Shown: positions 6,451-62,170, counted from the first letter of the stretch. The stretch: DNA of 63,313 bases from an uncultured Gammaproteobacteria bacterium (GCA_964536615.1 CAZHYG010000005.1:1-63313), one strand, 5' to 3'. Numbers and translations are program-made. Notes: generated by a model from the sequence alone, not told the origin.

Positions 6451-6458
6451 ATCATGTG

Positions 6459-7880
6459 TTAAACCACAGAGCCTTTTCGGGTCAAAATAATAAATGGAGT
6501 CTTGATAAGAATTATTAAGTCCATGTATAGGCTCCAATTTTCAATATAAAATGTATCCAAATTTATTTCTTCTTCGTAGCTTAAGTTGCTGCGCCCGGAA
6601 ATTTGCGATAATCCGGTAATGCCAGGTTTGATTGCCAAGACAATTTTATGCTGTCGTTTATATCCTTGTACTTCGCGAGGCTGGTGTGGGCGCGGCCCTA
6701 CTAAACTCATGTCTCCGGCGAGGACATTGAAAAATTGAGGCAGTTCATCAATGCTCCAGCGTCGTAGAAATTTACCTGCCTTGGTAATTCGAGGATCATC
6801 TTTGATTTTATAAATCGGGCCAGACTTAATACTTTGTTTTTCAATAAGTTCTTTTTCTGTCGCCAGCGCATCTTCTCCCTGTTTGCCAAATTGAATGCCC
6901 GTTGAAAATTTTTGGTACATGGTTCTAAATTTGAGCGCGAAGAATTTTTTATCTTCTTGTCCAACCCGTTCATTTTTATAAATTATCGGAAAACCCGTTT
7001 CCAGCGCTACAATAAGAGAGCTGATGATAAATAAAGGTGAAAAAATTATGATAAAAAATATGCTGAGCAAAATATCGACTGCTCGTTTGATTATTCTGCT
7101 CCATCCGGTGAGGCGAGTAAGGCGCAGTTCAATAATGGGTATGCCGCCGAGAGTGCTTACAGCCATGTTGGTGGAGATGGTCGAGAATAAATCAGCTGAG
7201 TAGCGAAATGTAATATGGTGTTCGTTGGCAAAGTCTATGGCTTCTATAGCTTCGTCGCCGTGCGCTTTTGGGTCGGTAAAAATAATTTCATTAGGCCGGT
7301 TTTGCAAGAGAGCGTTTCTGGTATCTAGGGTAAAATGAGGGTAAGTGCCAATAACTTTATATCCCAGGCTTGGGCGCGAAAGAAGAGATTCTTTTATCTG
7401 TTCAGCAATTTTTTCTTTACCGATAATAACAGTAGTGCGCAAGCCAAAGCCCATGATATATAAAAGTTTTTTTAAACCATTCATAGCTATGCGTCCGGCG
7501 CAGACGTAGGTCATAGCCAATATCCATCCGACTAAGATTAGAAAACGCGAATCAAATTTTTGTAGGCTAAAAAATACATATATAGTAATGGCGGCAAAAC
7601 CGGTTGAGCAGGCAAATACCACTTTGGTTAGGTCTCCGGCCAAGGTTCGGTGGTAGCTTGTTTTGTATAGGCCTGACAGTGCAAAAATAAGTATCCACCC
7701 CAAGGCGGTAATGAGTACGAGCGGCCAATATGTTTCCCAAGAAAGGTTAAAAAGCACCGGACGAATATTTTTTGTAAATGCAGTAAAGCGGAGCAGGTAT
7801 GCGGTAAAACCAGCTAGAACGATCAGGATATAGTCAAGCGGCAGTTGAAAAAAAGCAAGGGTGAGATCTAGTTTTTTCAT
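6459..7880 (-). CDS. polyprenyl-phosphate sugar phosphotransferase (WbaP/WcaJ/EpsL-like priming transferase)
   Basis: 473 aa with N-terminal TM helices. The C-terminal bacterial sugar transferase domain reads FRTMY...DPRITKAGKFLRRWSIDELPQFFNVLAGDMSLVGPRP. Confidence 0.9.
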   Translation of the reverse strand: MKKLDLTLAFFQLPLDYILIVLAGFTAYLLRFTAFTKNIRPVLFNLSWETYWPLVLITALGWILIFALSGLYKTSYHRTLAGDLTKVVFACSTGFAAITIYVFFSLQKFDSRFLILVGWILAMTYVCAGRIAMNGLKKLLYIMGFGLRTTVIIGKEKIAEQIKESLLSRPSLGYKVIGTYPHFTLDTRNALLQNRPNEIIFTDPKAHGDEAIEAIDFANEHHITFRYSADLFSTISTNMAVSTLGGIPIIELRLTRLTGWSRIIKRAVDILLSIFFIIIFSPLFIISSLIVALETGFPIIYKNERVGQEDKKFFALKFRTMYQKFSTGIQFGKQGEDALATEKELIEKQSIKSGPIYKIKDDPRITKAGKFLRRWSIDELPQFFNVLAGDMSLVGPRPHQPREVQGYKRQHKIVLAIKPGITGLSQISGRSNLSYEEEINLDTFYIENWSLYMDLIILIKTPFIILTRKGSVV

Positions 7881-11474: not shown

Positions 11475-13445
11475 TTAGTTAGATTTGTTCCATTGGCGTT
11501 TTGTTTTAATGTACCAGTGCTCCATGTCGGCAAATCTGCTGGATGGGGAGGGGATAGTTGTAAAAGTAACGCCTTTTATTTCTTTGCTGAACACAAAATT
11601 GTAAATTGGCGTATATAAGAAAATAGCAGGATTGTCTTTAGTTATAATGTCTTGGAACTTGCGATAATTTTCAATTTTAATTTGTTCGGTAGTAGTGGTG
11701 CGAGCATCTTCAAGCAGCTTGTCGGCGGTACGGTCAGAGAACATAGATAAGTTTAGACCTGGATAAGCGGTTTGAGATGAGTGCCAGAACGGAAATGGAT
11801 CAGAGTCTGTGCCGATAATTTCACCGTATAATAAGGCATCATAACTTCGGTTACGCAGCACTTCGCGAGAGATTTGAGTGCTAGCGCTTATATTTATATC
11901 GGTCTTAACCCCTACGGCTCGCCACATTTTTGCAATCTCAGTCGCAACCTGCTGGTATTCAGGGCTGTCCACAGTGGTGATGGTGATATGTAAAATATCA
12001 TTGCTTTTATTTTTTCGATAGAAACTTTGTTCTGGATTCATTTCTTCGCGAATAGATTGAGCGGTTTCTTCTTCTATTTTTTTAATTTGCGCTTCTTGTT
12101 CTTCCGGTGGTGTGGTGGTATTAGATTTAATCGCTGAGATTTCCTCTTCTCTGGTTTTTAGGATGCTGTCGTATTGGGTTTGAAAAAAATCCTCAGGTTG
12201 AATTTTTTTCCAATTTTTATTGAGCGCTTCATTGGCCGCATCTACGTCAAACGCAGTTGTTTTTAATTCAGGATTATAGCCAAGCATTCCTTCAAGAATA
12301 GGGGAATTGATAAGTGTTGCATTTTTTTGTAAAGCATTCTCTATAATTGATTGTTTATCTAAAGCTGCAGCCAGAGCAGTGCGAATGTTGCTGTCTTTAA
12401 GAATAGATGAATCTTCGTTGAAAAATACAGCTGTATATTGAGGCAAGGTAAATGGTTGAGTAACAAAATTTTTACCGATAATTTTTTCAGTTAAATCATT
12501 GGGCAGAAAACTAACAGCATTTACATCTTGGCTTTTAAGGGCTGTGGCAGCCTGAATGAAATCAGGGTAGAACTTAAAGGTAAGTTTTTTTAGATAAGGA
12601 GGTTGTTTGTAGTATGTGGAATTTGGCTCCAAAGCATAGCTTTGAATATTGCCGCTTGCGTCTTTAGTTAGTTTATTGAATTTCCACGGACCGGTACCGA
12701 CGGGCTGTAAGTTTGTTTTAGCTAAACGAACTCCCGAAGGAGGAATAGCTGACCAAATATGTTCTGGTAAAATACCTAGTGTAAGACTGTGTAAAAATGG
12801 AGAAAATGCGTCTTTTAAAGTAAAGCGCATAGAAAAATCATCAATTTTTTCTGCGGTTACACCTTGAAAGGCTGAGATAAGCGGGCTGCCAACTTCTGGA
12901 TCTTGAATAGTTTGAAAAGTGAAGAGCACGTCGTTGGCGGTAAATGGTTCGTTGTCAGACCAAACAACGTTGGGTCGCAGTTTAATATCGTATATTTTTC
13001 CATCCTCGCTAACGGTATAGCTCTCTGCAAGGTCAGGCACAAGTTGTTGTTGGGAGTTATAGGAGAAAAGGCCAGAATACATGAGGGAAGCAATGTCCGC
13101 ATCCACATCGTTAGCGCTCGCAAAAAGAGGGTTGATATATTTTGGTTCTCCGATAAGAGCTTCGGTGTATTCGCCGCCAGTTGCCGGCAGTACAGTTTGG
13201 TGTGAAAAAATCCAGGTTGTGCCTAAAGCAATTGTTGAAAGAATGAAAATTGTAGTAGAAATTCCGACTATTTTTTTTTCTAAGCCAGTTAAAAAATTCC
13301 CCACGTATTTTAGTTGGGACCATTTTGGAATAATGTTAGTGCGAATTCGTTTTACCAATTTTTGGTCAAAGGCGTAAGATGGCCTGGCCGGACGCGAAGC
13401 GCCTTTTTGTTTTTTAATCCAAAAAAATAATTTGGATAATTTCAT
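11475..13445 (-). CDS. ABC transporter substrate-binding protein, family 5 (peptide/nickel, OppA/DppA-like), membrane anchored
   Basis: 656 aa with an N-terminal TM anchor. The SBP_bac_5-like core reads GGEYTEALIGEPKYINPLFA...LVPDLAESYTVSEDGKIYDIKLRPNVVWSD. Confidence 0.8.
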   Translation of the reverse strand: MKLSKLFFWIKKQKGASRPARPSYAFDQKLVKRIRTNIIPKWSQLKYVGNFLTGLEKKIVGISTTIFILSTIALGTTWIFSHQTVLPATGGEYTEALIGEPKYINPLFASANDVDADIASLMYSGLFSYNSQQQLVPDLAESYTVSEDGKIYDIKLRPNVVWSDNEPFTANDVLFTFQTIQDPEVGSPLISAFQGVTAEKIDDFSMRFTLKDAFSPFLHSLTLGILPEHIWSAIPPSGVRLAKTNLQPVGTGPWKFNKLTKDASGNIQSYALEPNSTYYKQPPYLKKLTFKFYPDFIQAATALKSQDVNAVSFLPNDLTEKIIGKNFVTQPFTLPQYTAVFFNEDSSILKDSNIRTALAAALDKQSIIENALQKNATLINSPILEGMLGYNPELKTTAFDVDAANEALNKNWKKIQPEDFFQTQYDSILKTREEEISAIKSNTTTPPEEQEAQIKKIEEETAQSIREEMNPEQSFYRKNKSNDILHITITTVDSPEYQQVATEIAKMWRAVGVKTDINISASTQISREVLRNRSYDALLYGEIIGTDSDPFPFWHSSQTAYPGLNLSMFSDRTADKLLEDARTTTTEQIKIENYRKFQDIITKDNPAIFLYTPIYNFVFSKEIKGVTFTTIPSPSSRFADMEHWYIKTKRQWNKSN

Positions 13446-21520: not shown

Positions 21521-21596
21521 TGGTGCGCCCGGATGGATTTGAACCGTCGACCCCCGCCTTATAAGGGCGGTGCTCTAACCGCTGAGCTACGGGCGC
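21521..21596 (-). tRNA. tRNA-Ile (anticodon UAU), CCA encoded
   Basis: The reverse complement is GCGCCCG-TA-GCTC-AGCGGTTA-GAGC-A-CCGCC-CTTATAA-GGCGG-GGGTC-GACGG-TTCAAAT-CCATC-CGGGCGC-ACCA. This is a 76-nt cloverleaf with one C-A mismatch in the T stem. The anticodon is TAT. Confidence 0.8.
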
Positions 21597-29059: not shown

Positions 29060-29192
29060 ACGATGTTAGGTTATAAAACAAATCTGTTTAATTTTATAAA
29101 AATTTCATGTATAGTATTTTATCATAGTACCATGCGCAGGGCAAGAGAAAATACTCTGCGCTGGCGCACCTGTCAACTCTAGGGAGGGAGAA

Positions 29193-29306
29193 ATGGAGTT
29201 CGCGCTTGAATTGTGCGCGGTGGTTGGTGCAGGGCCGTTGTGCCTGTACCTGGTGATTGTTCTTTATGTTCGGCTTTGGCCGAGGAAGGAGTCCGAAAAC
29301 GTCTAG
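29193..29306 (+). CDS. candidate 37-aa hydrophobic peptide (MEFALELCAVVGAGPLCLYLVIVLYVRLWPRKESENV)
   Basis: It is below the ORF-track cutoff and was found by hand. The SD AGGGAGGGAG ends 2 nt before the ATG. It has a single TM-like core, lies in a GC-rich patch, and is followed by a hairpin terminator. An ncRNA alternative is not excluded. Confidence 0.4.
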   Translation: MEFALELCAVVGAGPLCLYLVIVLYVRLWPRKESENV

Positions 29307-29324
29307 GCGTACGCCTGGCGGGGC

Positions 29325-29365
29325 GGCCGGTGCACGCATAAGAGGGGCGCCGGCCTTTGTTGTTT
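29325..29365 (+). terminator. rho-independent terminator
   Basis: Stem GGCCGGTGC / GCGCCGGCC (one G-U pair), a 13-nt loop, then TTTGTTGTTT. Confidence 0.55.
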
Positions 29366-29402
29366 ATAGAGCCAAAAAAATGTTTACAGAGATGCAAAGT
29401 TA

Positions 29403-29431
29403 TTGACAAAATCACGTAAGTATAGTAACCT
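29403..29431 (+). promoter_or_regulatory. putative promoter TTGACA-17-TAACCT
   Basis: It sits in the same TTATTGACAAAAT context as the rnpB promoter. The -10 element is weak. Confidence 0.4.
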
Positions 29432-29642
29432 GTGTATACGATTTGCTCTTTTTATTAAGTAGTCAGATGAAGACAAGATGGTCGGTATATTATGGTTAGG
29501 ATGTCGTTGCTTTTATACTAAGACCATGTAGAGAATTTATCTCTACATGGATTGAGGGAAAAGGGTAATATCATCCTAAACATAGCCGGCACACATGCTG
29601 TGTGTTTGGTTAATGGCTGATTGTTCTTCATAGGGGGCTTTG

Positions 29643-29858
29643 ATGAGGAATCGTTTCTGGTTGTCGGCAGGGTGCATGCCTAGTGGGTCCAACACCGATT
29701 GTGCCACAAAGGACACCCGTCTCTCAATCCCATACCACCCGAAGCCGTCGGTGTCACCGCCGGCGACCGAGGCCGATTCGGAAGCGCCACCGCCGGCGAC
29801 CGAGGCCGATTCGGAAGCGCCGTCCAAGCACGGCATCCCGAAGGCTGTCATCCGATGA
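29643..29858 (+). CDS. candidate 71-aa acidic Pro-rich protein with 11-aa tandem repeat (coding strand uncertain)
   Basis: The SD AGGGGG lies 5 nt upstream of the ATG. GC is high at third codon positions, but the antisense 91-aa ORF (29576-29851) shares the same third positions. Composition therefore cannot choose the strand. The + strand is favoured by the promoter, the SD, the ATGA coupling to the next ORF and the + oriented terminators. Confidence 0.35.
   Translation: MRNRFWLSAGCMPSGSNTDCATKDTRLSIPYHPKPSVSPPATEADSEAPPPATEADSEAPSKHGIPKAVIR
29755..29820. repeat. perfect tandem duplication, 2 x 33 bp (CACCGCCGGCGACCGAGGCCGATTCGGAAGCGC)
   Basis: Copies at 29755-29787 and 29788-29820 are identical base for base. 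Confidence 0.95.
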
Positions 29859-29980
29859 TCGTGGTGATGTGTTCGTGGAGGTGTTGGCGAATACCGAGGG
29901 CACCTCTTCGGTGTATTGGGGCGGAGAACGTCCCCAAGATCCCAATCCTCGTCTTCGCCTACTGCTACTTCTACGGCTGA
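29855..29980 (+). CDS. candidate 41-aa Cys/aromatic-rich peptide (MIVVMCSWRCWRIPRAPLRCIGAENVPKIPILVFAYCYFYG)
   Basis: Its ATG overlaps the TGA of the previous candidate ORF (ATGA). The last 16 codons all end in C or G. This frame-specific bias is not shared with any long antisense ORF. Confidence 0.35.
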   Translation: MIVVMCSWRCWRIPRAPLRCIGAENVPKIPILVFAYCYFYG

Positions 29981-30002
29981 GCGACTTGTCGCCAGCCGCC
30001 AC

Positions 30003-30047
30003 GGCTGTCTATCTGTCCCGCATGCGGGCAGGAGGGGATAGACAGCC
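30003..30047 (+). other. long GC-rich compound stem-loop
   Basis: The outer stem GGCTGTCTATC / GATAGACAGCC is perfect over 11 bp. It encloses the palindrome CCCGCATGCGGG. No T-run follows directly. Confidence 0.7.
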
Positions 30048-30091
30048 GAATTCGTTGCCGTGTCTTTAAAATTTTTGAAGCCAGTGCAAAA

Positions 30092-51199: not shown

Positions 51200-52453
51200 A
51201 TGAAAATTAAGCAAGTAATAGCCAGAGAAATTTTGGATTCTCGCGGCAATCCTACAATTGAAGCAAAAATAGCGCTTGAAAACGGCCTTACAGCGGTAGC
51301 AAAAGTACCATCTGGAGCATCTACTGGCGCGCATGAGGCGTGGGAGTTGCGCGATGGTGGAAAACGATATGATGGCAAAGGTGTTCTCAAAGCCGTTAAG
51401 CATGTTAATGTTGATATTGCGCGTGCGGTGGTCGGTATGGAAGTATTTGATATAGAAAAAATTGACGCGGCCATGATTGCTTTAGATGGTACATCGAATA
51501 AATCAAAGTTAGGAGCAAATGCTATTTTAGCGGTTTCTTTGGCCGCGGTGCGTGCCGGTGCTGTGGCTGCAAGCAAGCCTCTGTATGCTTATATCAGACA
51601 GGCATACCGATTGCCGGAAAAAGAATATCGCTTGCCGGTATTGGGAATGAATATTATAAATGGCGGACGTCATGCTGATAATGGTCTTTCGGTGCAAGAA
51701 TTTATGATTATGCCAAAACATAAATTATTGCGTGAGCGCGTACGCATGGGCGCGCAAATTTTTCATGCTTTGGCAGGTTTGTTGCATGAAAAAGGTTTTG
51801 TAACCGGAGTAGGAGACGAAGGCGGTTTTGCGCCTGAGCTTCTTAATAATGAAAAAGCAATTCAATATATTATGCAAGCTATCAAGTTGGCTGGTTGGGA
51901 GCCTGGCAAGCATGTATTTTTGGCTTTAGATGTGGCGGCTTCAGAGTTTTATAGAAATAAAAAATATTATTTTTTAGGAAAAAAACAAGCTTGGAGCGCC
52001 AGCGACATGGTTAGTAATATTAAAAATTGGATTAAAAAATATCCGATTGTTTCAGTGGAAGATGGCTTGGCGGAGGATGATTGGTCCAATTGGGCAACAC
52101 TTACCAAAGAAGTTGGTAAAAACGTGGCGTTAGTCGGTGATGATTTATTTGTTACCAACCCTGATCGTATTGCAAAGGGGATTGCCGAACATGTAGCCAA
52201 TACCGTGCTTATCAAAATTAATCAAATTGGCACTGTTTCAGAGACAATTAAGGCTGTGCGATTGGCTCGGCAGCATAACTATAGTATATTTGTATCTCAT
52301 CGCAGCGGAGAAACGGCCGATACGTTTATCGCGGATCTGGCAGTGGCGGTAAATGCGGAATATATGAAAACTGGATCCCTGTCTCGTTCTGAGCGAATTG
52401 AAAAATATAATCGTTTAATGGAAATTGAGCAAGAATTAGAATCAGTTCTATGA
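51200..52453 (+). CDS. eno: enolase
   Basis: 417 aa. Motifs: REILDSRGNPT, SHRSGETED-like (SHRSGETAD) and IKINQIGT. Confidence 0.95.
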   Translation: MKIKQVIAREILDSRGNPTIEAKIALENGLTAVAKVPSGASTGAHEAWELRDGGKRYDGKGVLKAVKHVNVDIARAVVGMEVFDIEKIDAAMIALDGTSNKSKLGANAILAVSLAAVRAGAVAASKPLYAYIRQAYRLPEKEYRLPVLGMNIINGGRHADNGLSVQEFMIMPKHKLLRERVRMGAQIFHALAGLLHEKGFVTGVGDEGGFAPELLNNEKAIQYIMQAIKLAGWEPGKHVFLALDVAASEFYRNKKYYFLGKKQAWSASDMVSNIKNWIKKYPIVSVEDGLAEDDWSNWATLTKEVGKNVALVGDDLFVTNPDRIAKGIAEHVANTVLIKINQIGTVSETIKAVRLARQHNYSIFVSHRSGETADTFIADLAVAVNAEYMKTGSLSRSERIEKYNRLMEIEQELESVL

Positions 52454-54000
52454 AACATCAAAAACAAACCGTACTTGTTATAGTAGACGGATGGGGAATA
52501 GGGAGTCCAAAAGATCCAGGTAATCCGGTTACCGTTAAAACGGCTCCGCACTATTTTTCGTATCTGGAAAAATATCCTAACACGCAATTAAAAGCCAGTG
52601 GTGAAAATGTTGGGCTTTTTAAAGGGCAAGAAGGAAATAGTGAAGCCGGGCATCTTAATCTGGGAGCGGGCCGAATTGTAAAACAAGATGCTTTGTATAT
52701 CTCAGAAGCCATAAAAGATGGGTTATTTTTTAAGAATAATGCCTTTCATGAGGCAATGCATTATGTGAAAAAGCATGACTCCGCTGTTCATTTGATGGGT
52801 TTGCTTTCAAACCATAACAGTGCCCATTCTTGCCCTGAACATCTGTATGCGTTGCTGGAATTGTTGCATAGAGAAAGAATTAAAAAGGTCTATCTGCATT
52901 TATTTACGGACGGCCGTGATTCCAGCCAGTTTGAAGCGGCACGGCATTTTAAAAATTTAGAGAAGCATTTTTATGGCAATGAAAAAGTGGCAACAGTCAT
53001 GGGCAGATTTTATGCTATGGATAGAAATAAAAGCTGGGCTCGCATCAAACGAGCGTATGATGCGCTGGTGCTTGGTTCGGGCAACAAGGCCGTAAACGTG
53101 AGTGATGCATTGCGTGAATCATACAATAAAGGCGATAGCGATGAGTTTATTGAGCCTACAGTTATTGTGGAAAAAGGAAAACCTGTGGCCACGATTAAAG
53201 ATCACGATGCTATTTTCTTTTTTAATTTGCGTAGTGATCGGGCGCGTGAGTTGACTAAAGCATTTGTGCAGCCTAATTTTAAAGAGCTTAATCCCGGCGC
53301 GTTTACTCGTTCCCGATGCCCAAAACATATTCAGTTTGTAGCGTTAACAGATTTTGGTCCGGATTTGCCTGGTATTTTAACTGCATTTCCAAGTCGAGAT
53401 GTGCCAAACAGTTTAGTACAGGCGCTTTGTCCAAAAAAACAATTGTATATTGCCGAGTCTGAAAAATTTGCTCACATTACATATTTTTTAAACGGCGGTT
53501 ACGCGCAGCATTTTTGCGATGAAAATTGGGTAAAAATTTCTTCTGTGGAATTAAAAGATTATGCCAATAAGCCCGAAATGAGCGCTAAGCAAATTGCAGA
53601 TTATGCTATCGGTGCGATTAAATCAGAAAGCTACGAGTTTATTGCTTTAAATTTTGCCAATATGGATATGGTTGGCCACACCGGAAATTTTGCAGCCGGT
53701 CAAAAAGCAGTGAAGGCGGTAGATGCGGCTATAGACCGTATTGCTCAAGTTGTGTTAAAACATAAAGGCCAGCTTATCATTACGGCCGATCATGGAAACA
53801 TTGAAGAAATGATCAACGCAGAAACTGGTGAGCCTAACACAGAACATTCAACCAATCCAGTGCCGTTTATTTTGATTACCGATGATAAAAAGATTCCGCG
53901 ATCTTTGCGGCAAGGCAAGCTCGCCAATGTAGCTCCGACTATTCTTAAATTGATGGGTGTGGCTAAACCTGCTGAAATGACAGCCAAAAGTTTGGTTTAA
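52450..54000 (+). CDS. gpmI: 2,3-bisphosphoglycerate-independent phosphoglycerate mutase, copy 1
   Basis: 516 aa. Its ATG overlaps the eno stop (ATGA). Motifs: DGWG, GNSEAGHLNLGAGR (catalytic Ser), NMDMVGHTG and TADHGN. Confidence 0.9.
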   Translation: MKHQKQTVLVIVDGWGIGSPKDPGNPVTVKTAPHYFSYLEKYPNTQLKASGENVGLFKGQEGNSEAGHLNLGAGRIVKQDALYISEAIKDGLFFKNNAFHEAMHYVKKHDSAVHLMGLLSNHNSAHSCPEHLYALLELLHRERIKKVYLHLFTDGRDSSQFEAARHFKNLEKHFYGNEKVATVMGRFYAMDRNKSWARIKRAYDALVLGSGNKAVNVSDALRESYNKGDSDEFIEPTVIVEKGKPVATIKDHDAIFFFNLRSDRARELTKAFVQPNFKELNPGAFTRSRCPKHIQFVALTDFGPDLPGILTAFPSRDVPNSLVQALCPKKQLYIAESEKFAHITYFLNGGYAQHFCDENWVKISSVELKDYANKPEMSAKQIADYAIGAIKSESYEFIALNFANMDMVGHTGNFAAGQKAVKAVDAAIDRIAQVVLKHKGQLIITADHGNIEEMINAETGEPNTEHSTNPVPFILITDDKKIPRSLRQGKLANVAPTILKLMGVAKPAEMTAKSLV

Positions 54001-54027
54001 TTTTTTAGGAAGTTTTACAATGATGTT

Positions 54028-55605
54028 ATGCCAAAGCGACCGATAGTATTAATTATAATGGATGGATGGGGTGTTGCGCCGCATGTTGAAGGTAATGCGG
54101 TTTTTAGAGCTGAAACTCCAAATTTTAATAAATTTATTACCAATTATCCGGCCATGACATTGCATGCATCTGGTACGGAGGTTGGTCTTTTGTTTGGTGA
54201 AATGGGGAATTCCGAAGTAGGCCACCTAAATATTGGCGCAGGCAGAGTGTATTATCAAAGTTGTCCACGCATCAATCGCGCCATTGAAGACGGAAGTTTT
54301 TTTGAGAATGAAGCGCTGTGCGCCGCAATTGATCATGCCAAAAAAAATAACTCAAATTTACATTTGGTTGGGTTGGTGAGTTCGGGTAATGTCCACTCCA
54401 GCAACCAGCATTTGTACGCATTGCTTGATTTGTGCAAAAGAAAAAAGTTTACAAAAAATGTATTTATTCACGCGGTGCTTGATGGTCGTGATGCTTTGTA
54501 TAATTCCGGACGTGAATTTATTGTGGAAGCGGAAAAAAAGATTTCGGAATATAAAATCGGAGAAATTGTCACGTTGTCCGGGCGATATTTTGCCATGGAT
54601 AGAGATAACAGATGGGACAGGTGTGAAAAGGCATATCGAGCAATTGCCGAAGGCAAAGCAGATCGGTATGAGCAAGATCCGATTACGGCTATAGAAAAAT
54701 CGTATGAGCAAAAAATATATGATGAAGAATTTATTCCAACTGTCATAACACGCAAAGATAAACCAGTAGCCGTGGTGGGGGAAAAAGACGCAGTTATCTT
54801 TTTTAATTTTAGACCTGATCGCGCTCGACAATTGACCGAAGCATTTGCGCTGCCTTCATTTAATAAATTTGCCAAAACATATTCAAAAGATTTGTTTGTG
54901 GCCACGATGACGGAATATGAAAAAGATTTGCCTGTAGCCGTGGCGTTTGCGCCGGTGGTAGTGCATAATTGTTTGGCTGAAGTGATAAGCAAAGCAGGGT
55001 TAAAGCAAATACATATAGCTGAAACAGAAAAATATGCTCATGTTACATTTTTTTTAAACGGTACAGTTGAAGAACCTTTCCCCGGTGAAGATAGAATTTT
55101 AATTCCTTCACCGCATGTATCTAGTTATGATCAGCAGCCAGAAATGTCGGCTTTAGAAATTGCTAAAGAAGCGGGCAAGGCGATAGACAGCGGCAAGTAT
55201 GATCTTATAGTTCTCAATATTGCCAATGCGGACATGGTGGGGCACACCGGTAATCTTGAAGCCGGAATAAAAGCATGCAAAATTGTTGATAAATGCCTGG
55301 GTGATATTGCGGATCATGCTTTGTCTCAAAATGGTGTAGTGGTAATTACAGCGGATCACGGCAATGCCGAAGAAATGACCAACTTGCAAACTGGGGATAT
55401 TGATAAGGAGCATTCCACCAATCCGGTACCTTTAATTATTATCGGTAAAGAATTTTTAGGTCAAGCCGGTCCTTCAGGAGACCCTCCGGAAGGCGACCTA
55501 AGTTTGTTGCAGCCTGCGGGGATTTTGGCAGATGTTGCCCCAACTGTTCTTTCGTTGTTGGGAGTGTCTCAGCCGGAAGATATGACAGGTGCAACACTTA
55601 TCTAG
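54028..55605 (+). CDS. gpmI: 2,3-bisphosphoglycerate-independent phosphoglycerate mutase, copy 2
   Basis: 525 aa. Motifs: DGWG, GNSEVGHLNIGAGR, NADMVGHTG and TADHGN. Confidence 0.9.
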   Translation: MPKRPIVLIIMDGWGVAPHVEGNAVFRAETPNFNKFITNYPAMTLHASGTEVGLLFGEMGNSEVGHLNIGAGRVYYQSCPRINRAIEDGSFFENEALCAAIDHAKKNNSNLHLVGLVSSGNVHSSNQHLYALLDLCKRKKFTKNVFIHAVLDGRDALYNSGREFIVEAEKKISEYKIGEIVTLSGRYFAMDRDNRWDRCEKAYRAIAEGKADRYEQDPITAIEKSYEQKIYDEEFIPTVITRKDKPVAVVGEKDAVIFFNFRPDRARQLTEAFALPSFNKFAKTYSKDLFVATMTEYEKDLPVAVAFAPVVVHNCLAEVISKAGLKQIHIAETEKYAHVTFFLNGTVEEPFPGEDRILIPSPHVSSYDQQPEMSALEIAKEAGKAIDSGKYDLIVLNIANADMVGHTGNLEAGIKACKIVDKCLGDIADHALSQNGVVVITADHGNAEEMTNLQTGDIDKEHSTNPVPLIIIGKEFLGQAGPSGDPPEGDLSLLQPAGILADVAPTVLSLLGVSQPEDMTGATLI

Positions 55606-55620
55606 TTTATATTACAAATT

Positions 55621-55649
55621 TTGACAGCGATTTTTTTGTCGTGTAGAGT
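55621..55649 (+). promoter_or_regulatory. putative promoter TTGACA-17-TAGAGT
   Basis: Perfect -35 and 17-nt spacer, about 155 nt upstream of the first GC-rich orphan gene. Confidence 0.4.
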
Positions 55650-55803
55650 TGTGTTTAAGAAGAGCTGTTTTTAAATGTCTCAGTTTTCTATTTGATTTAC
55701 TTTCATATAAAAAAGTAGGTTAACCTGAAGGCTGGAACAATATCCGGTCTTCTCTTGGCCCTTTTGGTCGAGATCGTCCCCCACTTTGGGGAGAAGGCAA
55801 GTC

Positions 55804-56517
55804 ATGCGGGATCGTACGGCTTCATTCAAAGCTCTGGCGAAGATTGTTGCTAATCTCTCCGATGAGGAGCAGCTTGCCATTATAGATCATCCGAAGCGAT
55901 TCGGGGATCTGATGTGCCAATTCGCTGCTGAAGTTGCTTCAAGTACCTACGTGATTCCTGTTCACGATAAGGACGTGCCGCTGCCACACAGGGCAGCTGC
56001 CAGAACTTGGCGTCAGTATGCTCGTGCACACGACTACAATGGCCCTATCGCTTGGAGGGTCAAGGAAGGCTTCACCCTCAGGAGTCATGCCCAGACGGCT
56101 GGTCCGTGCTCAGGTCTGAGGTATATCTCGTATTGGGACGAGATCACAGGCGATGCACCTACGGACAAATGTATCGTGTTCTGGGTGCCACGTTTGGTTA
56201 GTAGTTCTATGGACAAGACCTTTGTCCAGATGGAGGAACGCCGTGAAGAGGCAAAAAGATGTCTCGAGCTGCCAGACAACCATGCTACCAGTTTTGGGGG
56301 TATTTCACTCCTCTTTGCGCTCGTTTTGGCCCATTTTAAGCGAGTAGGTGAGCGCGTACCGCTCAAGGAGTTTTTTGCAGTAAGCGACTCCTTGGGTGTG
56401 GAAGGGAACCGCTTGATTGTGGGTGGTTTCAATAAGAGCGGGTTGCAGTGCGCCAATACGGTCGGTAAGCCTCGCTATGACGTAGGGTTCTTCCTCTTGG
56501 GAGTGGAGTTGCTCTAG
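55804..56517 (+). CDS. GC-rich orphan protein (237 aa), unknown function
   Basis: The start was moved to ATG at 55804, which follows a GGAGAAGG SD. The uninterrupted 238-codon frame lies in DNA of about 55% GC, against about 40% for the neighbours. I recognise no family motif. Confidence 0.6.
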   Translation: MRDRTASFKALAKIVANLSDEEQLAIIDHPKRFGDLMCQFAAEVASSTYVIPVHDKDVPLPHRAAARTWRQYARAHDYNGPIAWRVKEGFTLRSHAQTAGPCSGLRYISYWDEITGDAPTDKCIVFWVPRLVSSSMDKTFVQMEERREEAKRCLELPDNHATSFGGISLLFALVLAHFKRVGERVPLKEFFAVSDSLGVEGNRLIVGGFNKSGLQCANTVGKPRYDVGFFLLGVELL

Positions 56518-56547
56518 TAACTGGTGCCAAACGTCGAGCCTTCGCAG

Positions 56548-56610
56548 TTCGCCGCCTAACACCGCTTTGTAAAGATGTATACTTTTTATAAAGCGGTGCG
56601 GCGAATTTTA
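56548..56610 (+). terminator. long hairpin terminator after first orphan gene
   Basis: TTCGCCGC..CACCGCTTTGTAAAG / CTTTTTATAAAGCGGTG..GCGGCGAA, then TTTT. A second hairpin (AAAAAGACTCTTA / TAAGGGTCTTTTT) lies at 56619-56649. Confidence 0.6.
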
Positions 56611-56697
56611 TATAATTCAAAAAGACTCTTATTAACTAAGGGTCTTTTTGTATATTTATAGCGCAACACTTATCTAAAATAAAAAATAAACAGAGGG

Positions 56698-56724
56698 TTG
56701 ACATGCCCTCTGTTTTGGTATACT
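56698..56724 (+). promoter_or_regulatory. extended -10 promoter (TTGACA ... TGgTATACT)
   Basis: TTGACA at 56698-56703 and TGGTATACT at 56716-56724. The spacer is short (15 nt) but the TGn extension is present. The same TTTGGTATACT occurs upstream of the rlmI-like gene. Confidence 0.5.
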
Positions 56725-56763
56725 GTTTTGTATTCCGCACACACGCGGAAAAAGGAGGATATC

Positions 56764-57225
56764 ATGTCGACCAATTCGTTTGGCGATGTCTGCCAAGCGG
56801 TGATGCGCTTGTTTCCGCCTACTCTGGAGATCGACCCTTCTGTCTGTGATTTGGGGTTGGTTCCAGACTTGGACAAGCTGCATGCCTACCAGTTTGCGCG
56901 TCCAAGGCTTGACGGCACTGTCCCTGAGGTTGTCGAAAACGACTTCTGGTACATGGCCTTGCAGGGCGGCTATGACCGGTATGGGCTGGGGTTGTTGAAT
57001 CGGCTATGGAATGTGCCGTATATGGAATGGCCGGCATCGTTGATGTCAGTGGGTGACACGCTCGTGTTTGGTGGTGCCAAGTTGCGGCGCAAGGGCATGT
57101 TGTTTGTGGCCACTCTTGCGATTCAGTATGATTTGCGTACCGAGAGGTTGGTGCCTGTGGTTGGTGCCAAGTGGACAGGGTCTCCGTACTGGCCGTATCA
57201 GGCTGGGCTAGTGTGTGAAGCGTAG
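56764..57225 (+). CDS. GC-rich orphan protein (153 aa), unknown function
   Basis: The start was moved to ATG at 56764, which lies 6 nt after a perfect AGGAGG. The composition is GC-rich and no family motif was recognised. Confidence 0.6.
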   Translation: MSTNSFGDVCQAVMRLFPPTLEIDPSVCDLGLVPDLDKLHAYQFARPRLDGTVPEVVENDFWYMALQGGYDRYGLGLLNRLWNVPYMEWPASLMSVGDTLVFGGAKLRRKGMLFVATLAIQYDLRTERLVPVVGAKWTGSPYWPYQAGLVCEA

Positions 57226-57260
57226 TCGCCACGTTGCGGCGCGCTTCGGAAACGTGTGGT

Positions 57261-57300
57261 GGCCGCAGGCTTGGGAGAAGCCGGCGGCCTTTGTTGTTTT
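57261..57300 (+). terminator. rho-independent terminator
   Basis: Stem GGCCGCAGGCTT / AAGCCGGCGGCC (one mismatch), then TTTGTTGTTTT. Confidence 0.6.
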
Positions 57301-57303
57301 AAA

Positions 57304-57342
57304 TAAAAAATACCGCGTTTGCTATAAAATGCACGCGGTATT
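57304..57342 (-). terminator. rho-independent terminator of the DHH gene
   Basis: On the minus strand: stem ATACCGCG / CGCGGTAT followed by TTTTTT. Confidence 0.55.
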
Positions 57343-58487
57343 TAGATGGTTTGCAATAATTTTTTTATTTTTTCCGTAACTTCGATTTCAACCTCTTTAA
57401 TGGATTTGCCGGATATAGAAAATGATGCGGATCGTTTGCTGCCCTCGGGTTTTAATCCTTGAAGCAGTTCTTTTGCGTCGTGCTGCTTGTCTGTGCAAAG
57501 TAATCCGTGCACCGCATGTTCTCCTTTTGTATCTTCGTGCAGTAAAAGCACAATACGCGCTTCAGGAGAGTTATGCATCAGCTCATCTGTAAGATCTTTT
57601 AATTCATCTTCGCTGGCGCCGGCTCTGGCAAAATCTTCTCTGGTAATAGTAGTCCATACAAAACCGGTTTTAGGATCGTTTTCCATGTGGGTAAGTGCAA
57701 TACCCCAAATGCGCATAGATGAGATGCTTTTTGTTCTGTATAAATTTTTGACAATTTTTTCTCTGTCTGCCCCCAAATTCATAAGGGTGCTGGCGGTGTT
57801 GAGTGTATCCGGACTTACATTGGCAGTTTTAAAACTTTGAGTTTGGCTAATCATGCCGGTAAGCAGATAGTTGGCCATTTCTGCGTCAATTTCTTGCGGA
57901 TAAAGACGCGATAAAGTTTTAAAAACAATCTCGGAAATTGATGTAGCGCTTAATTGTACAACATTGATCTGCCCGAAATGTTCATTGCCTGGGTTGTGGT
58001 CAAAATTTACCAGAGGAACTTTGTAAAACAAATCGGTGTTGTGCAAGAAAATATTTCCTAATGATTCCAAATCCTGAGCGTTAATTGCAATAATCAAATC
58101 ATATTTTAAACCAGAGTGCGCCGTGCGCAATTCATTTTTGGTGATGATGCCTTGTTTGGGAGTGATGTAAATGGAAAGCCAATTATCTTTAATGTCGTAG
58201 CTCAGGCTATCTACTTTTACATTACTCACATCAACTTTGAGAATAAATTTTTGCACGTTTGATATAATGGGTTGAATTTCTTCCAGGCCTTTTAAAAAAC
58301 GAAGCGGTTTTGGAATAGAAAAATTTTCCGCAATAATATCGGCCTGTTTATGATGCCTTTCCAGGATTTTTTTCCAAGCCATGGCAGCGCAAATTGCATC
58401 TGTGTTATGGTTGGCATTTGTAACAAGTAATATATGCTGGCTGGATTCAATTATGTGTCGGAGTTGTTCCGTTTCGTTAAGCGACAT
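57342..58487 (-). CDS. DHH/DHHA1-family phosphoesterase-like protein (NrnA-like) with substituted catalytic motifs
   Basis: 381 aa with NrnA-like length and layout. However, motif I reads NANHNTDA, the DHH motif reads FDHNPGN, and no GGGH motif is visible in the DHHA1 part. Confidence 0.75.
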   Translation of the reverse strand: MSLNETEQLRHIIESSQHILLVTNANHNTDAICAAMAWKKILERHHKQADIIAENFSIPKPLRFLKGLEEIQPIISNVQKFILKVDVSNVKVDSLSYDIKDNWLSIYITPKQGIITKNELRTAHSGLKYDLIIAINAQDLESLGNIFLHNTDLFYKVPLVNFDHNPGNEHFGQINVVQLSATSISEIVFKTLSRLYPQEIDAEMANYLLTGMISQTQSFKTANVSPDTLNTASTLMNLGADREKIVKNLYRTKSISSMRIWGIALTHMENDPKTGFVWTTITREDFARAGASEDELKDLTDELMHNSPEARIVLLLHEDTKGEHAVHGLLCTDKQHDAKELLQGLKPEGSKRSASFSISGKSIKEVEIEVTEKIKKLLQTI

Positions 58488-58531
58488 ACCCTAGTAAGTT
58501 TTTTAGCTCGTGTTTATTAAAATAACACGCT

Positions 58532-58560
58532 ATTCTAGCAGAGATATAGGCTCTTGTCAA
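58532..58560 (-). promoter_or_regulatory. consensus promoter TTGACA-17-TAGAAT for the DHH gene
   Basis: Read on the minus strand: TTGACA agagcctatatctctgc TAGAAT. Confidence 0.55.
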
Positions 58561-58585
58561 ATATGCAGCCCCAGTCGGTTTTAGC

Positions 58586-58619
58586 GCAAAAAACACACCT
58601 TTTTTCGGTGTGTTTTTTT
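58586..58619. terminator. bidirectional terminator
   Basis: AAAAAACACACC-TTTTTTC-GGTGTGTTTTTT. Confidence 0.65.
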
Positions 58620-58705
58620 ATGTATTTTCTGACCGCTCGCGTTGTGTATGCGCAATATTTTGTGTATACAAAGCGAAAAACGAGCGGTCGGTCAAGGGGG
58701 TGGCG

Positions 58706-58912
58706 TCATCGGCGTGTGGGCCGGTGCGAGCGTGCCCCGCTGCAGATTGGCGCAGCCGCGTTGATTGGCAGCTGAAGCGCCGGCAGAATCCGGTCTTCGT
58801 TCCGGAAGTTCAGTTGGTAGGCGTTTTTTGGCCCTGGTAGCCAGAGCACGGCAATGGCCGCTATAGTAGCGGACACAATGAGCGCAAGCGCCCACTGCAA
58901 TGGCGTTTTCAT
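58706..58912 (-). CDS. GC-rich small membrane-anchored protein (68 aa)
   Basis: The SD AAGGAG lies 8 nt upstream of the ATG. It has an N-terminal TM (LQWALALIVSATIAAIAVLWL), a GC-rich composition and an ATTGACAAAA -35 context upstream. No homology recognised. Confidence 0.5.
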   Translation of the reverse strand: MKTPLQWALALIVSATIAAIAVLWLPGPKNAYQLNFRNEDRILPALQLPINAAAPICSGARSHRPTRR

Positions 58913-59020
58913 GGCAGTTGCTCCTTCTCGGGTTGATATGGTACTGGTACCATGCCTCGGATAGTTTTGTCAATGGGGTTTGGTTTGATTTTTTTATTTA
59001 ACTTTAGTACAATAAGAGCC

Positions 59021-62000
59021 ATGAAAAAAGAACTTGCCAAGGCATACGAACCTTCAATTTACGAAGATGCCATATACAAAAAATGGGAAGAGTCAGGGTT
59101 GTTTAACCCTGATATTTGCGTAGCACAACATATTGCCGAACCGGAGGCGCCATATTTTTCTGTGGTACTTCCTCCGCCAAATGTAACAGGCACATTGCAT
59201 ATGGGTCATGCGGTTATGCTTGCTGTACAAGATGCCATGGTGCGGTATCATCGCATGAAAGGCGAGCGTACATTATGGGTGCCTGGTACCGATCATGCCG
59301 CCATTGCTACGCAAGCAAAAGTTGAAAAATTAGTCATGGAAAAAGAAAAAAAGACTAAATATGATTTAGGACGATCTGAATTTTTAAAGCGGGTAGAACA
59401 GTTTGCGCAAGAAAGCCACGACACTATTGTTAATCAGGCGCGAAAAATGGGCGCATCGCTTGATTGGAGCCGTGAAGCATATACATTAGACGAGCAGCGC
59501 AATTTAGCTGTACGCACCGTGTTTAAAAAAATGTATGATGACGGCCTTATCTATCGCGGCTATCGCGTAATCAACTGGTCTGTACAAGGCCAGTCTACTA
59601 TCAGCGATGATGAAATTGTGCATGTTGAACGCCCGGCCAAGTTATATTATTTTAAATATTCCAAAGATTTTCCAATTACCATTGCCACCACCAGGCCCGA
59701 AACAAAATTAGGCGATACGGCTGTGGCGGTTAATCCAAATGACGAGCGGTATAAAAAATATATCGGACAAGAATTTACGGTTGATGTCGGCGCTCTTGAA
59801 CCTCTTAAAATAAAAATTATCGGCGAAGATACGGTCGATCCTGCTTTTGGTACAGGCGCGCTCGGCGTTACTCCCGCTCATAGTGCCGCAGACTTTGAGA
59901 TGTATCAAAAACAAAAAGCGGCCGGAAACGAGATTGGCTTTATTCAGGTAATTGGCGAAGATGGAAGGATGACCGCATCTGCAGGCAAACAATACGCTGG
60001 TCTCTCGGCTTTGGAAGCAAGGAAAAAATTTGTGGCATTTTTGGTAGATAATAACTTGTTGGAAAAAGAAGAAGATATTGTTCAAAATGTTGGTACATCC
60101 GACAGGTTTGGCGATGTGGTGGAGCCGTTGCCAAAAACACAGTGGTTTATTGATGTAAACAAGCCGGTTGCAGCTCGCGGCGGCAAAACTCTTAAAGAGT
60201 TAATGCAAGAAGCGGTGCAAAGCAAACAAATTGCAATCGTGCCGGATCGTTTTGAAAAAACATATTTCCACTGGATAGATAATTTGCGCGACTGGTGTAT
60301 TAGTCGTCAGATTTGGTTTGGACACCAGATACCTGTGTGGTACAAAGATGAGAAAATATATTGCGGTGTGCAAGCGCCTGCAGGCGACGGTTGGGTGCAA
60401 GATCCAGACACGCTAGACACATGGTTTTCTTCGGGTTTATGGACATTTTCTACATTAGGATGGCCGCTTACTACAGTTGGTTTTGTGCGTCATGGTGAAG
60501 CAGAAAATAATGTGTCTTTAACTGTAAGCAACGACGTAGATAAATATCCTCTTACTGAAAAAGGCAGAAAGCAGATTGCTGATTTAGCAAAAGAGTTGCG
60601 CGGCCAAGGATATGAACGCATTATCGCGTCGCCAATTTTGCGTACCAAACAAACCGCAGAAATTTTATCAGATGCATTGGGTCTTCCGCTAGAATTTGAT
60701 GATCGTATTAAAGAAGTTGGATTTGGAGAATATAATCATCATGCAGAAATTGAAATAGAAGAACAGCGAGCTCGCAATGGCTGGATGGTTAAGACTCCGT
60801 TTAATATGGAATCATATGCATCGTTGCGTCAGCGTACGCATGCGTGTATGGCCGATGTAACGGCACGCTATGCGGGCCAAAAAATACTTATGGTTTCTCA
60901 CGGTGATACGCTGGCGGTGTTAAAACAGTTTGGCACCGATGTCTATACCAACGAGTTGGGTGTGTTGCAAAAACGCGGCACCTGCGACATGCGGCAGTTT
61001 GATACCAGCGGACGGCAGGCAAGTGATTTGGCAGCGTTTCATCCAACATCGGTTATGGAAACCGGCTATGATATTTTGTTTTTCTGGGTAGCGCGCATGA
61101 TACTTATGACCACCTATACGCTGGGAGAGGTTCCATTTAAGACAGTGTATTTGCATGGCTTGGTGCGCGATGAACAGGGAAGAAAAATGAGCAAATCATT
61201 GGGTAATATTATTGATCCGCTAGACATGATTGCAAAATATGGCACTGACGCTACCAGATTGTCGCTGCTTTTAGGCAATACGCCAGGCAATGATATGAAA
61301 TTATCCGAAGAAAAAATTGCCGGCTTTAGAAATTTTACCAATAAATTGTGGAACATTTCTCGGTTTATGCTGCTTAATATTGAAGAGCCGAACATGAATG
61401 TTCAAGAGCCAAAAGCAAAAACGTTGGCAGACACATGGATATTGGAAAAATTACAATCTATTGTTGTTAAAACTTCCGAGCATATTGAAAAGTTTAATTT
61501 TTCTATGGCTGGCGAAGAGTTACGCGATTTTACTTGGGGAGATCTGGCGGACTGGTATTTGGAAATTGCCAAAGTAGAGGGGGGTAAATCAGAGATTTTA
61601 AATTATATTTTAAATACAATATTAAAACTCTGGCATCCATACATGCCGTTTGTAACCGAAACTATTTGGCAGGAAGTGTATGGGCACGAGCGCATGATGA
61701 TGGTAGAGAAGTGGCCAATTGCAGTGACGCATAAAAAAACTGAAGGCGATGATTTTGAGTTGATACGTTCAATTATTACCGGCATACGTTCTTTGCGCGC
61801 GGAAAATAAGATAGAGCCAGCCAAAAAAATTGGCGCGCGTTTAAATATTGGAGATAGAAAAAAATTAATACAAAAAAATGAAGAGGCTATAAAGGCCCTG
61901 GCTCGGTTGGAAAAATTAGAGTTTGCAGATTCGGGAGCCGAGATCGCTTTGGATTTGGCCGGAGCAGTAGATGTGGAAAAAGAAAAACCAAGGCTGGAAA

Positions 62001-62170
62001 AAGAAATAGCCGAACTTGTCAAATATATTTCTGGATTAGAAAATAAATTGTCTAATCAAGAATTTGTAAATAATGCGCCAAAGCCGGTGGTAGAAAAAGA
62101 ACAGGCCAAGTTAAGTGAAGCAAAAATAAAAGTAGAAAAATTACAACAGCAACTTGAGAATTTAAAATAA
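59021..62170 (+). CDS. valS: valyl-tRNA synthetase carrying an internal histidine-phosphatase domain
   Basis: The start was moved to MKKELAKAYEP at 59021. It has HIGH (LHMGHA), the CP1 editing domain (TTRPETKLGDTAV), KMSKS and a C-terminal coiled coil. A foreign domain of about 188 codons lies at 60467-61030. Confidence 0.95.
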   Translation: MKKELAKAYEPSIYEDAIYKKWEESGLFNPDICVAQHIAEPEAPYFSVVLPPPNVTGTLHMGHAVMLAVQDAMVRYHRMKGERTLWVPGTDHAAIATQAKVEKLVMEKEKKTKYDLGRSEFLKRVEQFAQESHDTIVNQARKMGASLDWSREAYTLDEQRNLAVRTVFKKMYDDGLIYRGYRVINWSVQGQSTISDDEIVHVERPAKLYYFKYSKDFPITIATTRPETKLGDTAVAVNPNDERYKKYIGQEFTVDVGALEPLKIKIIGEDTVDPAFGTGALGVTPAHSAADFEMYQKQKAAGNEIGFIQVIGEDGRMTASAGKQYAGLSALEARKKFVAFLVDNNLLEKEEDIVQNVGTSDRFGDVVEPLPKTQWFIDVNKPVAARGGKTLKELMQEAVQSKQIAIVPDRFEKTYFHWIDNLRDWCISRQIWFGHQIPVWYKDEKIYCGVQAPAGDGWVQDPDTLDTWFSSGLWTFSTLGWPLTTVGFVRHGEAENNVSLTVSNDVDKYPLTEKGRKQIADLAKELRGQGYERIIASPILRTKQTAEILSDALGLPLEFDDRIKEVGFGEYNHHAEIEIEEQRARNGWMVKTPFNMESYASLRQRTHACMADVTARYAGQKILMVSHGDTLAVLKQFGTDVYTNELGVLQKRGTCDMRQFDTSGRQASDLAAFHPTSVMETGYDILFFWVARMILMTTYTLGEVPFKTVYLHGLVRDEQGRKMSKSLGNIIDPLDMIAKYGTDATRLSLLLGNTPGNDMKLSEEKIAGFRNFTNKLWNISRFMLLNIEEPNMNVQEPKAKTLADTWILEKLQSIVVKTSEHIEKFNFSMAGEELRDFTWGDLADWYLEIAKVEGGKSEILNYILNTILKLWHPYMPFVTETIWQEVYGHERMMMVEKWPIAVTHKKTEGDDFELIRSIITGIRSLRAENKIEPAKKIGARLNIGDRKKLIQKNEEAIKALARLEKLEFADSGAEIALDLAGAVDVEKEKPRLEKEIAELVKYISGLENKLSNQEFVNNAPKPVVEKEQAKLSEAKIKVEKLQQQLENLK

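Follow-up and report, generated by a model that had tools for sequence, protein, structure and literature searches.

A probably retired member of a diversity-generating retroelement target family, with a conserved leader RNA, beside an unrelated orphan gene in a Patescibacteria genome segment

Introduction

Remote targets of diversity-generating retroelements (DGRs) are known, and mismatches between a variable region (VR) and its template repeat (TR) that are confined to template adenines are the hallmark of these elements. DGRs are unusually common in Patescibacteria (the candidate phyla radiation, CPR), whose DGR clade is clade 2, and their targets in these organisms are small, without transmembrane segments or known domains, and functionally opaque (PMC8144416). 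We analysed a stretch of DNA of 63,313 nucleotides (nt), the whole of which we call the window and which is a segment of a Patescibacteria genome, focusing on two open reading frames, ORF237 and ORF153, that lie between gpmI and a gene for a DHH phosphoesterase. The closest described counterparts of ORF237 are DGR variable proteins such as Mtd of Bordetella phage and TvpA of Treponema, and in particular the domain-less targets of the Patescibacteria clade, with which members of its family have in common a C-terminal VR, an adenine-biased TR, an initiation of mutagenic homing (IMH) sequence, Avd and a reverse transcriptase (RT) of about 334 aa. Unlike those proteins, the window copy lacks TR, Avd and RT over the 63 kb, has a degenerate IMH and evolves in its VR as ordinary coding sequence does; there is no Pfam model for its family, whose fold matches known C-type-lectin (CLec) variable proteins weakly.

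Two further comparisons are instructive. The RNA leader found 5′ of ORF237 resembles riboswitch and attenuator leaders such as the nadA and Fibro-purF motifs, being made of several hairpins, attached to one gene family and supported by covariation, with a hairpin that abuts the Shine–Dalgarno (SD) sequence and two mutually exclusive pairings, P0 and P1; unlike riboswitch leaders, it has no identified ligand or binding-pocket-like conserved core and is absent from Rfam 15. The papers on DGRs that we consulted describe no dedicated leader for target genes. ORF153 resembles ORFans in that its homologues occur in one genus, evolve fast, are short and have no family or fold, and it differs from them in its stable synteny beside DHH and in a GC excess of 12–14 points kept through deep divergence. 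Taking the locus as a whole, we consider it likely that ORF237 is a stand-alone member of a DGR target family with a fixed VR, run by its leader and carried on an indel cassette, and that ORF153 is an unrelated, older orphan.

Results

ORF237 belongs to a DGR target family of Patescibacteria

ORF237 (55804..56517, plus strand) encodes a protein of 237 aa, which we assign to a DGR target (variable-protein) family of Patescibacteria from its homologues, its AlphaFold2 (AF2) model and the DGR-linked members of the family. A word-indexed search returned 89 full-length homologues and an exhaustive profile search 318 representative clusters at 50% identity. The homologues are 38–63% identical to ORF237 over their full length, with E-values down to 1e-91 and no frameshifts, and all those that are named come from Patescibacteria, for example Magasanikbacteria, Uhrbacteria and Buchananbacteria. 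Searches of Pfam, PHROGs, NCBIfam and PADLOC gave no meaningful match for either ORF237 or ORF153, bearing out an earlier note on this DNA, made from the sequence alone, in which neither protein had been recognised. The ORF237 family as a whole has no Pfam model, and its longer members carry no fused Pfam domains.

The connection to DGRs is seen most directly at locus L037, where downstream of the ORF237 homologue (P0024) lies a 116-nt repeat that is 82% identical to the 3′ end of the gene, and beyond it an Avd-like gene, encoded on the other strand, and an RVT_1 reverse transcriptase of 334 aa. Four more loci from a genome scan are laid out in this way. TR, Avd and RT lie downstream in five of the first 16 loci, and TR and RT (with avd) in 10 of the 30 informative loci from genome and metagenome scans, a locus being informative if it is distinct and 2 kb or more of sequence is available downstream. 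When the VR and TR copies of L020, L022, L025, L027 and L037 were compared, 97 of 102 mismatches fell on template adenines. Together, the TR, Avd and RT neighbours and the adenine-biased mismatches identify the ORF237 family as the target family of a Patescibacteria DGR lineage, and with no transmembrane segment and no recognisable domain it fits the published description of domain-less CPR targets.

The AF2 model of ORF237 is confident, with a predicted local distance difference test score (pLDDT) of 90.8. Foldseek comparison with the PDB and with viral models returned Mtd, Dectin-2, the TSG-6 link module, DUF1566 and viral lectins, all of them weak matches (probability 0.04–0.51, E at least 0.03), and PDB sequence searches with the profile and with the C-terminal half gave no relevant match. 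From these weak matches, the family may be built on a C-type-lectin-like scaffold.

Several arrangements were observed around the family. At L027, one TR is matched by two target paralogues (2277-2846 and 6001-6714), L021 and L049 hold tandem paralogues without an RT, and in P0117 the whole domain is duplicated internally. Genes for tRNAs lie near some loci (L013, 6422-6503; L037, 7731-7804 and 8502-8573; L058, 2577-2649 and 3115-3196), in L037 one of them directly 3′ of the DGR RT, and may hint at integration hot spots. Directly past the stop codon, most family members (for example those of L019, L020, L028 and L031) carry the motif TAGGAYCCTTGG, after which come repeated CTTGG-like pentamers and a terminator. 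The clade of the window and L038 does not have this arrangement, and the long hairpin at 56546-56606 takes its place.

A structured leader RNA precedes the family

A leader of about 100 nt is conserved 5′ of nearly every member of the ORF237 family, DGR-linked or unlinked. In the window it occupies 55707..55806 (plus strand), where it is recognised by covariance model R1 at 74.1 bits (E = 3e-12) and folds with z = −3.56. Applied to 431 kb of related loci, R1 gave 49 matches, every one of which (49/49) ends at the start codon of a family member. Two plus-strand hairpins within it covary, P2 (55751-55773, 7 bp) and P3 (55779-55791, 5 bp), the latter abutting the SD sequence GGAGAAGG at 55790-55797; their positions are paired in 95.8% of cases, with both-side changes in 9 of 12 pairs, a score that none of 500 shuffles reached and from which slid controls stayed far below.

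Just upstream of the conserved leader, 22 sequences have a 23-bp hairpin, P0, which is 94.6% paired and shows both-side changes in 10 of its 23 pairs, a score likewise reached by 0 of 500 shuffles. When the 3′ 90 nt are folded by themselves, an alternative hairpin appears, P1 (55727-55752, plus strand, as pairing potential), whose 5′ arm is the 3′ arm of P0; the two pairings are mutually exclusive. A further plus-strand hairpin in the leader region, at 55692-55723, is specific to the window clade. The frequent G-U pairs indicate that the structure resides on the sense RNA.

Rfam 15, searched with gathering and E-value thresholds, holds no family for the leader or for the GC-rich segments of the locus. 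A weak R1 match 5′ of ORF153 (19 bits, E = 0.18, window-wide) covers only a P1-like hairpin and the SD, skipping P2 and P3, and was treated as chance. The leader is a family-specific element absent from Rfam and, together with the target-specific GC signature described below, it is what is new in this study. Cis-regulatory RNAs are characterised by conserved structure, covariation and a constant place before a single gene family, all of which the leader shows, and from this pattern it would act as a cis-regulatory switch on translation or transcription. Expression of the family would then run through the leader, with P0 competing with P1 in most members.

The window copy has probably left diversification

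The segment of ORF237 that corresponds to the VR, as placed by protein alignment with the VR and TR of L037, lies at 56404..56508 (plus strand) and ends in a degenerate IMH, TTGGGAGTGGAG (56497-56508, plus strand), where active copies carry CTGGGGGTGGAG. Wherever there is TR or RT evidence, in 17 copies, the IMH core TGGGGGTGG (CTGGGGGTGGA) is intact, while that of the window reads TTGGGAGTGG, with two substitutions within a G-run that is invariant in the 17 DGR-linked copies. Degenerate cores occur in 12 copies including that of the window, and none of the 12 has a TR or RT (Fisher p = 0.001, kinship ignored). In the 63-kb window, tblastn with the L037 RT and Avd found no match better than E = 1.3 and blastn found no TR for ORF237, and four metagenomes that hold the locus, at depths of up to 24x, contain no TR-like contig at 80% likeness or more.

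The VR itself behaves like the remainder of the gene. Among strain variants, 7 of 46 nucleotide differences fall within the VR, which makes up 15% of the gene length, and the differences are spread along the whole gene. A 63%-identical orthologue occupies the same gpmI/DHH slot in L038, where the DHH protein is 75% identical to that of the window; active cassettes can mutate 15 positions, and at 8 of these the two ORF237 proteins agree, as they do in W-to-T and A-to-P changes at adenine-free codons. The window copy therefore has the homology to DGR-linked targets (including P0024 of L037) expected of a DGR target, but neither an intact IMH nor hypervariation of the VR between strains, nor, in the 63 kb, an RT and Avd, nor, in the 63 kb and the metagenome contigs searched, a cognate TR. 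From these comparisons, we regard it as probably a retired DGR target, whose VR would be frozen and whose specificity would be fixed.

A different account of the same gene would have it still active as a remote target, with RT, Avd and TR located elsewhere rewriting 56404-56508 in trans. About two-thirds of the family members have no adjacent DGR, and most of these have an intact IMH; one TR serves two targets in L027; and the window covers only 63 kb of its genome. This account has to accommodate the two substitutions in the otherwise invariant G-run, the conservation of the VR across lineages with DHH proteins only 75% identical, the lack of any VR excess of differences among strain variants and the lack of a TR-like contig in the metagenomes holding the locus, and on balance we think it unlikely.

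Some observations weigh against the reading of ORF237 as a retired, leader-run target on a lectin-like scaffold. The contig threshold of 80% falls within the family TR/VR identity range of 79–86%, so that a TR could be missed, and the search for RT, Avd and TR covered 63 kb of the genome, so that a remote RT or TR could lie elsewhere. The comparison of intact with degenerate IMH ignores phylogeny, and the window, L038 and L039 form one clade. P1 shows no significant covariation (in a register-free permutation test, 137 of 2000 permutations reach the observed value), and the C-type-lectin fold matches, with Foldseek probabilities of about 0.5 or lower, are weak.

ORF237 is carried on an indel cassette in a shared slot

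ORF237 lies on a cassette of 1072 nt (start to start of the repeats) that comprises a promoter-like site, the leader, the ORF, a long hairpin and a terminator. An exact 14-nt direct repeat, GCAACACTTATCTA, marks the indel boundary on the plus strand, its left copy (55591..55604) running from the last codons of gpmI-2 into the stop codon and its right copy lying at 56663..56676. The cassette is missing from L001-L006, which are 88–92% identical to the window in nucleotide sequence, and the order gpmI-ORF153-DHH without ORF237 is found both there and in the more distant lineage L007-L012. One lineage, L038, has ORF237 alone in the slot, and the two genes occur together only in the window clade. 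The indel is either an insertion with duplication or a deletion between the repeats; the presence of the L038 orthologue in the same slot points to long residence in it or a strong preference for it.

A recombination breakpoint at the slot was considered and rejected, since identity to L001 is 87–89% on the left and about 90% on the right, with no sharp step. Two further sequences, at 1967-1980 and 12307-12320 (minus strand), both within genes, differ from the 14-mer GCAACACTTATCTA at a single position, giving four matches in the window against 0.03 expected; as they have no flanking similarity to the repeat pair, they are probably due to chance.

Signals for transcription are arranged separately around each gene. 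Upstream of ORF237, a candidate promoter-like sequence TTGACA-17-TAGAGT (55621..55649, plus strand) matches at 10 of 12 positions, and upstream of ORF153 a promoter-like site at 56695..56724 (plus strand; TTGACA at 56699-56704, a 15-nt spacer and TGgTATACT) is kept in L001 and L007, its spacer being outside the range used by our promoter scan. That scan found two sites in the region against 1.9 expected by chance, so that the hexamers, which had been noted before as giving each gene its own promoter, are present but are no evidence on their own. Past ORF237, an interrupted hairpin of about 25 bp (56546..56606, plus strand) begins 29 nt beyond the stop codon. L038 has kept it, the arms having changed in a compensatory way (TTCGCCGC/GCGGCGAA versus TTTGCCGC/GCGGCAAA in the L038 comparison). 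It is followed by a hairpin that folds like an intrinsic terminator, with a T-rich tail (56619..56649, plus strand), and the 3′ region as a whole folds with z = −5.9. Past ORF153, a GC-rich hairpin followed by TTTGTTGTTTT (57261..57299, plus strand) is kept in L001, and a second hairpin (57310-57341) serves the convergent DHH gene. Hairpin terminators after both genes, and SD sequences before both, are thus present as the earlier note had stated.

High GC content is a family trait

The window has a mean GC content of 41.8% (standard deviation, sd, 4.2% in 300-nt windows), with peaks of 54.7% at 55751-56300 and 58% at 56701-57350, each more than 2.5 sd above the mean. ORF237 has a GC content of 52.5%, with 56% at third codon positions (GC3), and ORF153 one of 55.4%, with a GC3 of 66%; the flanking gpmI, DHH and valS genes range from 39 to 42%. 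Tetranucleotide deviation is likewise pronounced (z = 3.3–3.7 for ORF237 and 2.7–2.9 for ORF153, both in the top 18 of 627 windows), confirming the compositional contrast from which the earlier note had set out. The spacer between the genes (56518-56763) has a GC content of 38%, so that there are two separate GC-rich gene bodies and no single block. Three other GC-rich spots were found within the window, at 27.5 kb (inside gyrB), 29.2-30.1 kb and 58.55-59.0 kb.

In 36 loci, the GC content of ORF237 homologues is on average 14.5 points above that of their flanks, the difference being more than 5 points in 33 of them. Gene GC stays at about 0.52–0.65 across host GC of 0.33–0.64, and GC3 is 0.53–0.91 in most copies, the lowest value being 0.31. 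In complete cassettes, RT and avd have a GC content no higher than that of the host, in contrast to the GC-rich part of the target outside the VR. GC3 is lower in copies with a degenerate IMH (0.57 versus 0.73, p = 0.0013, kinship ignored). Adenine avoidance was rejected as the cause of the high GC, as A and T are equally depleted. High GC is therefore a trait of the DGR target family and not of RT or avd, and a simple history of recent transfer with later amelioration does not account for it.

These results bear on the proposal, made from the GC contrast, that the two genes are a recent foreign island from a GC-rich donor that was later given host promoters. The GC and tetranucleotide deviations are real, atypical GC has been taken as a sign of DGR transfer (PMC5758913), and ORF237 has several features of a genomic island: its cassette is absent from relatives of about 90% identity, as it is throughout L001-L012, and is bounded by the 14-nt repeats. 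The site is not empty in those relatives, however, as they carry ORF153, which is syntenic down to 48% identity with its GC excess retained. ORF237 occupies the same slot in the outgroup L038 at 63% identity, no integrase, transposase or other mobility gene lies nearby, and the GC excess is family-wide without extending to the RT and avd of the same cassettes. Homologues, where named, come from Patescibacteria throughout. We judge a foreign island very improbable, and foreign origin is not evident from composition here.

ORF153 is a genus-restricted orphan

ORF153 (56764..57225, plus strand; 153 aa) is preceded by the SD sequence AAGGAGG at 56752-56758. Among 5.8 billion proteins it has homologues in two clusters, at 90% and 48% identity, a result that was the same even with a profile query; both clusters belong to the same genus and the same slot, and the gene is syntenic in L001-L012. 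The GC excess is kept in both lineages, including the 48%-identical one. Its nonsynonymous proxy of 0.41, compared with 0.10–0.16 in neighbouring genes, indicates weak constraint. By inspection, it has no signal peptide or transmembrane segment, and its AF2 model (pLDDT 48) is too poor for fold comparison. We read ORF153 as a fast-evolving soluble orphan, an older resident of the gpmI/DHH slot that is unrelated to ORF237; any functional link to the DHH phosphoesterase would be a guess. At L010 (2626-4374), the right neighbour of the ORF153 homologue is still the convergent DHH gene, and on the left are genes for MazG and thymidylate kinase, not gpmI.

The distant paralogy of the two proteins that had been suggested from a loose C-terminal pattern was not borne out, hhalign giving a probability of 0.15% over 15 aligned columns. 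That the two might nonetheless form a functional pair, such as a toxin–antitoxin or defence module, is suggested by their adjacency on the same strand, their small size and their lack of characterisation. Such a pairing is hard to reconcile with the distribution of the genes, ORF153 being alone in L001-L012 and ORF237 alone in L038, with the separate promoter-like site and terminator of each, with the varied neighbours of ORF237 homologues or with the failure of both to match PADLOC, and we give it very little credence.

Both genes are real. Each ORF shows the codon periodicity GC1 > GC2 < GC3, and differences between strains fall on codon positions 1, 2 and 3 in the proportions 14/5/27 (ORF237) and 12/10/27 (ORF153); with the existence of protein homologues, this periodicity and the excess of third-position substitutions establish that both are coding, at the lengths of 237 and 153 aa given in the earlier note. 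Although RNA genes often account for GC-rich islands in AT-rich genomes, and GC-rich DNA contains few stop codons, the idea that the ORFs are spurious frames across GC-rich non-coding RNAs can be set aside as next to impossible, given the three-base periodicity, with GC3 of up to 0.91 in homologues, the third-codon-position substitution excess, protein conservation to E = 1e-91 without frameshifts, the confident AF2 model of ORF237 and the lack of an Rfam match. The order gpmI-ORF237-ORF153-DHH is found in five independent assemblies and is thus no assembly chimera, and metatranscriptome contigs map on both ORFs, which are probably expressed, as had been expected. ORF237 and ORF153 are thus real accessory genes, without forming a single island or a pair of paralogues; of the undescribed accessory module that the earlier note saw in them, the accessory nature of both holds, while ORF237, as a member of a DGR target family, is not a new kind of gene.

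Other features of the window

A GC-rich segment of about 0.9 kb (29160-30060, GC up to 63%) separates gyrB (minus strand) from a large fn3/Big surface-protein gene (plus strand). It has no credible ORF and no Rfam match, is a strong tetranucleotide outlier, contains a 36-nt tandem duplication at about 29756-29827, and may represent one or two non-coding RNAs. Within it, the tail GGCCTTTGTTGTTT at 29352-29365 is the same as the tail of the ORF153 terminator at 57286-57299.

The GC-rich intergenic region between DHH and valS (58490-58950) drops to about 80% nucleotide identity to L001. It includes a minus-strand ORF of 68 aa (58706-58912) that has a hydrophobic helix at its N terminus and is kept in L001 (60% identity) and in L007 and L010 (43%); this is a third GC-rich, fast-evolving small gene beside DHH. 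In the valyl-tRNA synthetase encoded by the adjoining valS (58952-62170), residues 511-657 are an inserted histidine-phosphatase (His_Phos_1) domain, which is present in the L001 lineage (1055 aa) and missing from the L007 lineage (866 aa). Towards its 3′ end (61.2-62.1 kb), valS is unusually divergent among relatives (62–73% in L003).

On the other side of the slot, two tandem gpmI paralogues of 516 and 525 aa (52450-55605) follow pgk, a SIMPL-domain gene and eno, and the first of them is split into two ORFs in L003 and L004. The window also holds a tRNA-Ile gene with anticodon TAT at 21521-21596; this anticodon is an uncommon way to read AUA in bacteria.

Discussion

The mechanism that we propose starts from the active cassettes of the family. 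In these, the target gene would end in a VR of about 110–120 nt, with the TR 300–450 nt downstream, and TR, Avd and RT would rewrite the VR by adenine-specific mutagenic retrohoming, the product being a small soluble protein with a hypervariable ligand-binding face. The window copy would have lost these components, if it ever had them close by; the VR would be inherited like the rest of the gene, the IMH would have decayed, and the copy would now encode a binding protein of fixed specificity.

A more far-reaching interpretation can be attached to this mechanism. The leader could represent a new class of RNA switch for DGR targets that couples expression to a signal, and the whole-gene GC enrichment of the targets, which RT and avd lack and which fades with the loss of the IMH, could be an undescribed requirement for, or by-product of, DGR activity. 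We put this forward tentatively, as an idea that may well not hold.

For annotation, the locus is a warning that a GC-rich island is no proof of foreign DNA. The signature of a GC-rich target beside RT and avd that are not GC-rich could help to find orphan or remote targets in AT-rich genomes. For the biology of these elements in Patescibacteria, a sizeable target family, of 318 clusters at 50% identity, now has a confident structure model, and its leader makes the regulation of DGR targets experimentally approachable. The window copy, in turn, would be a natural example of a target that has gone out of diversification and been kept with a fixed VR, and may serve as a contrast for questions about the ligands of the family.

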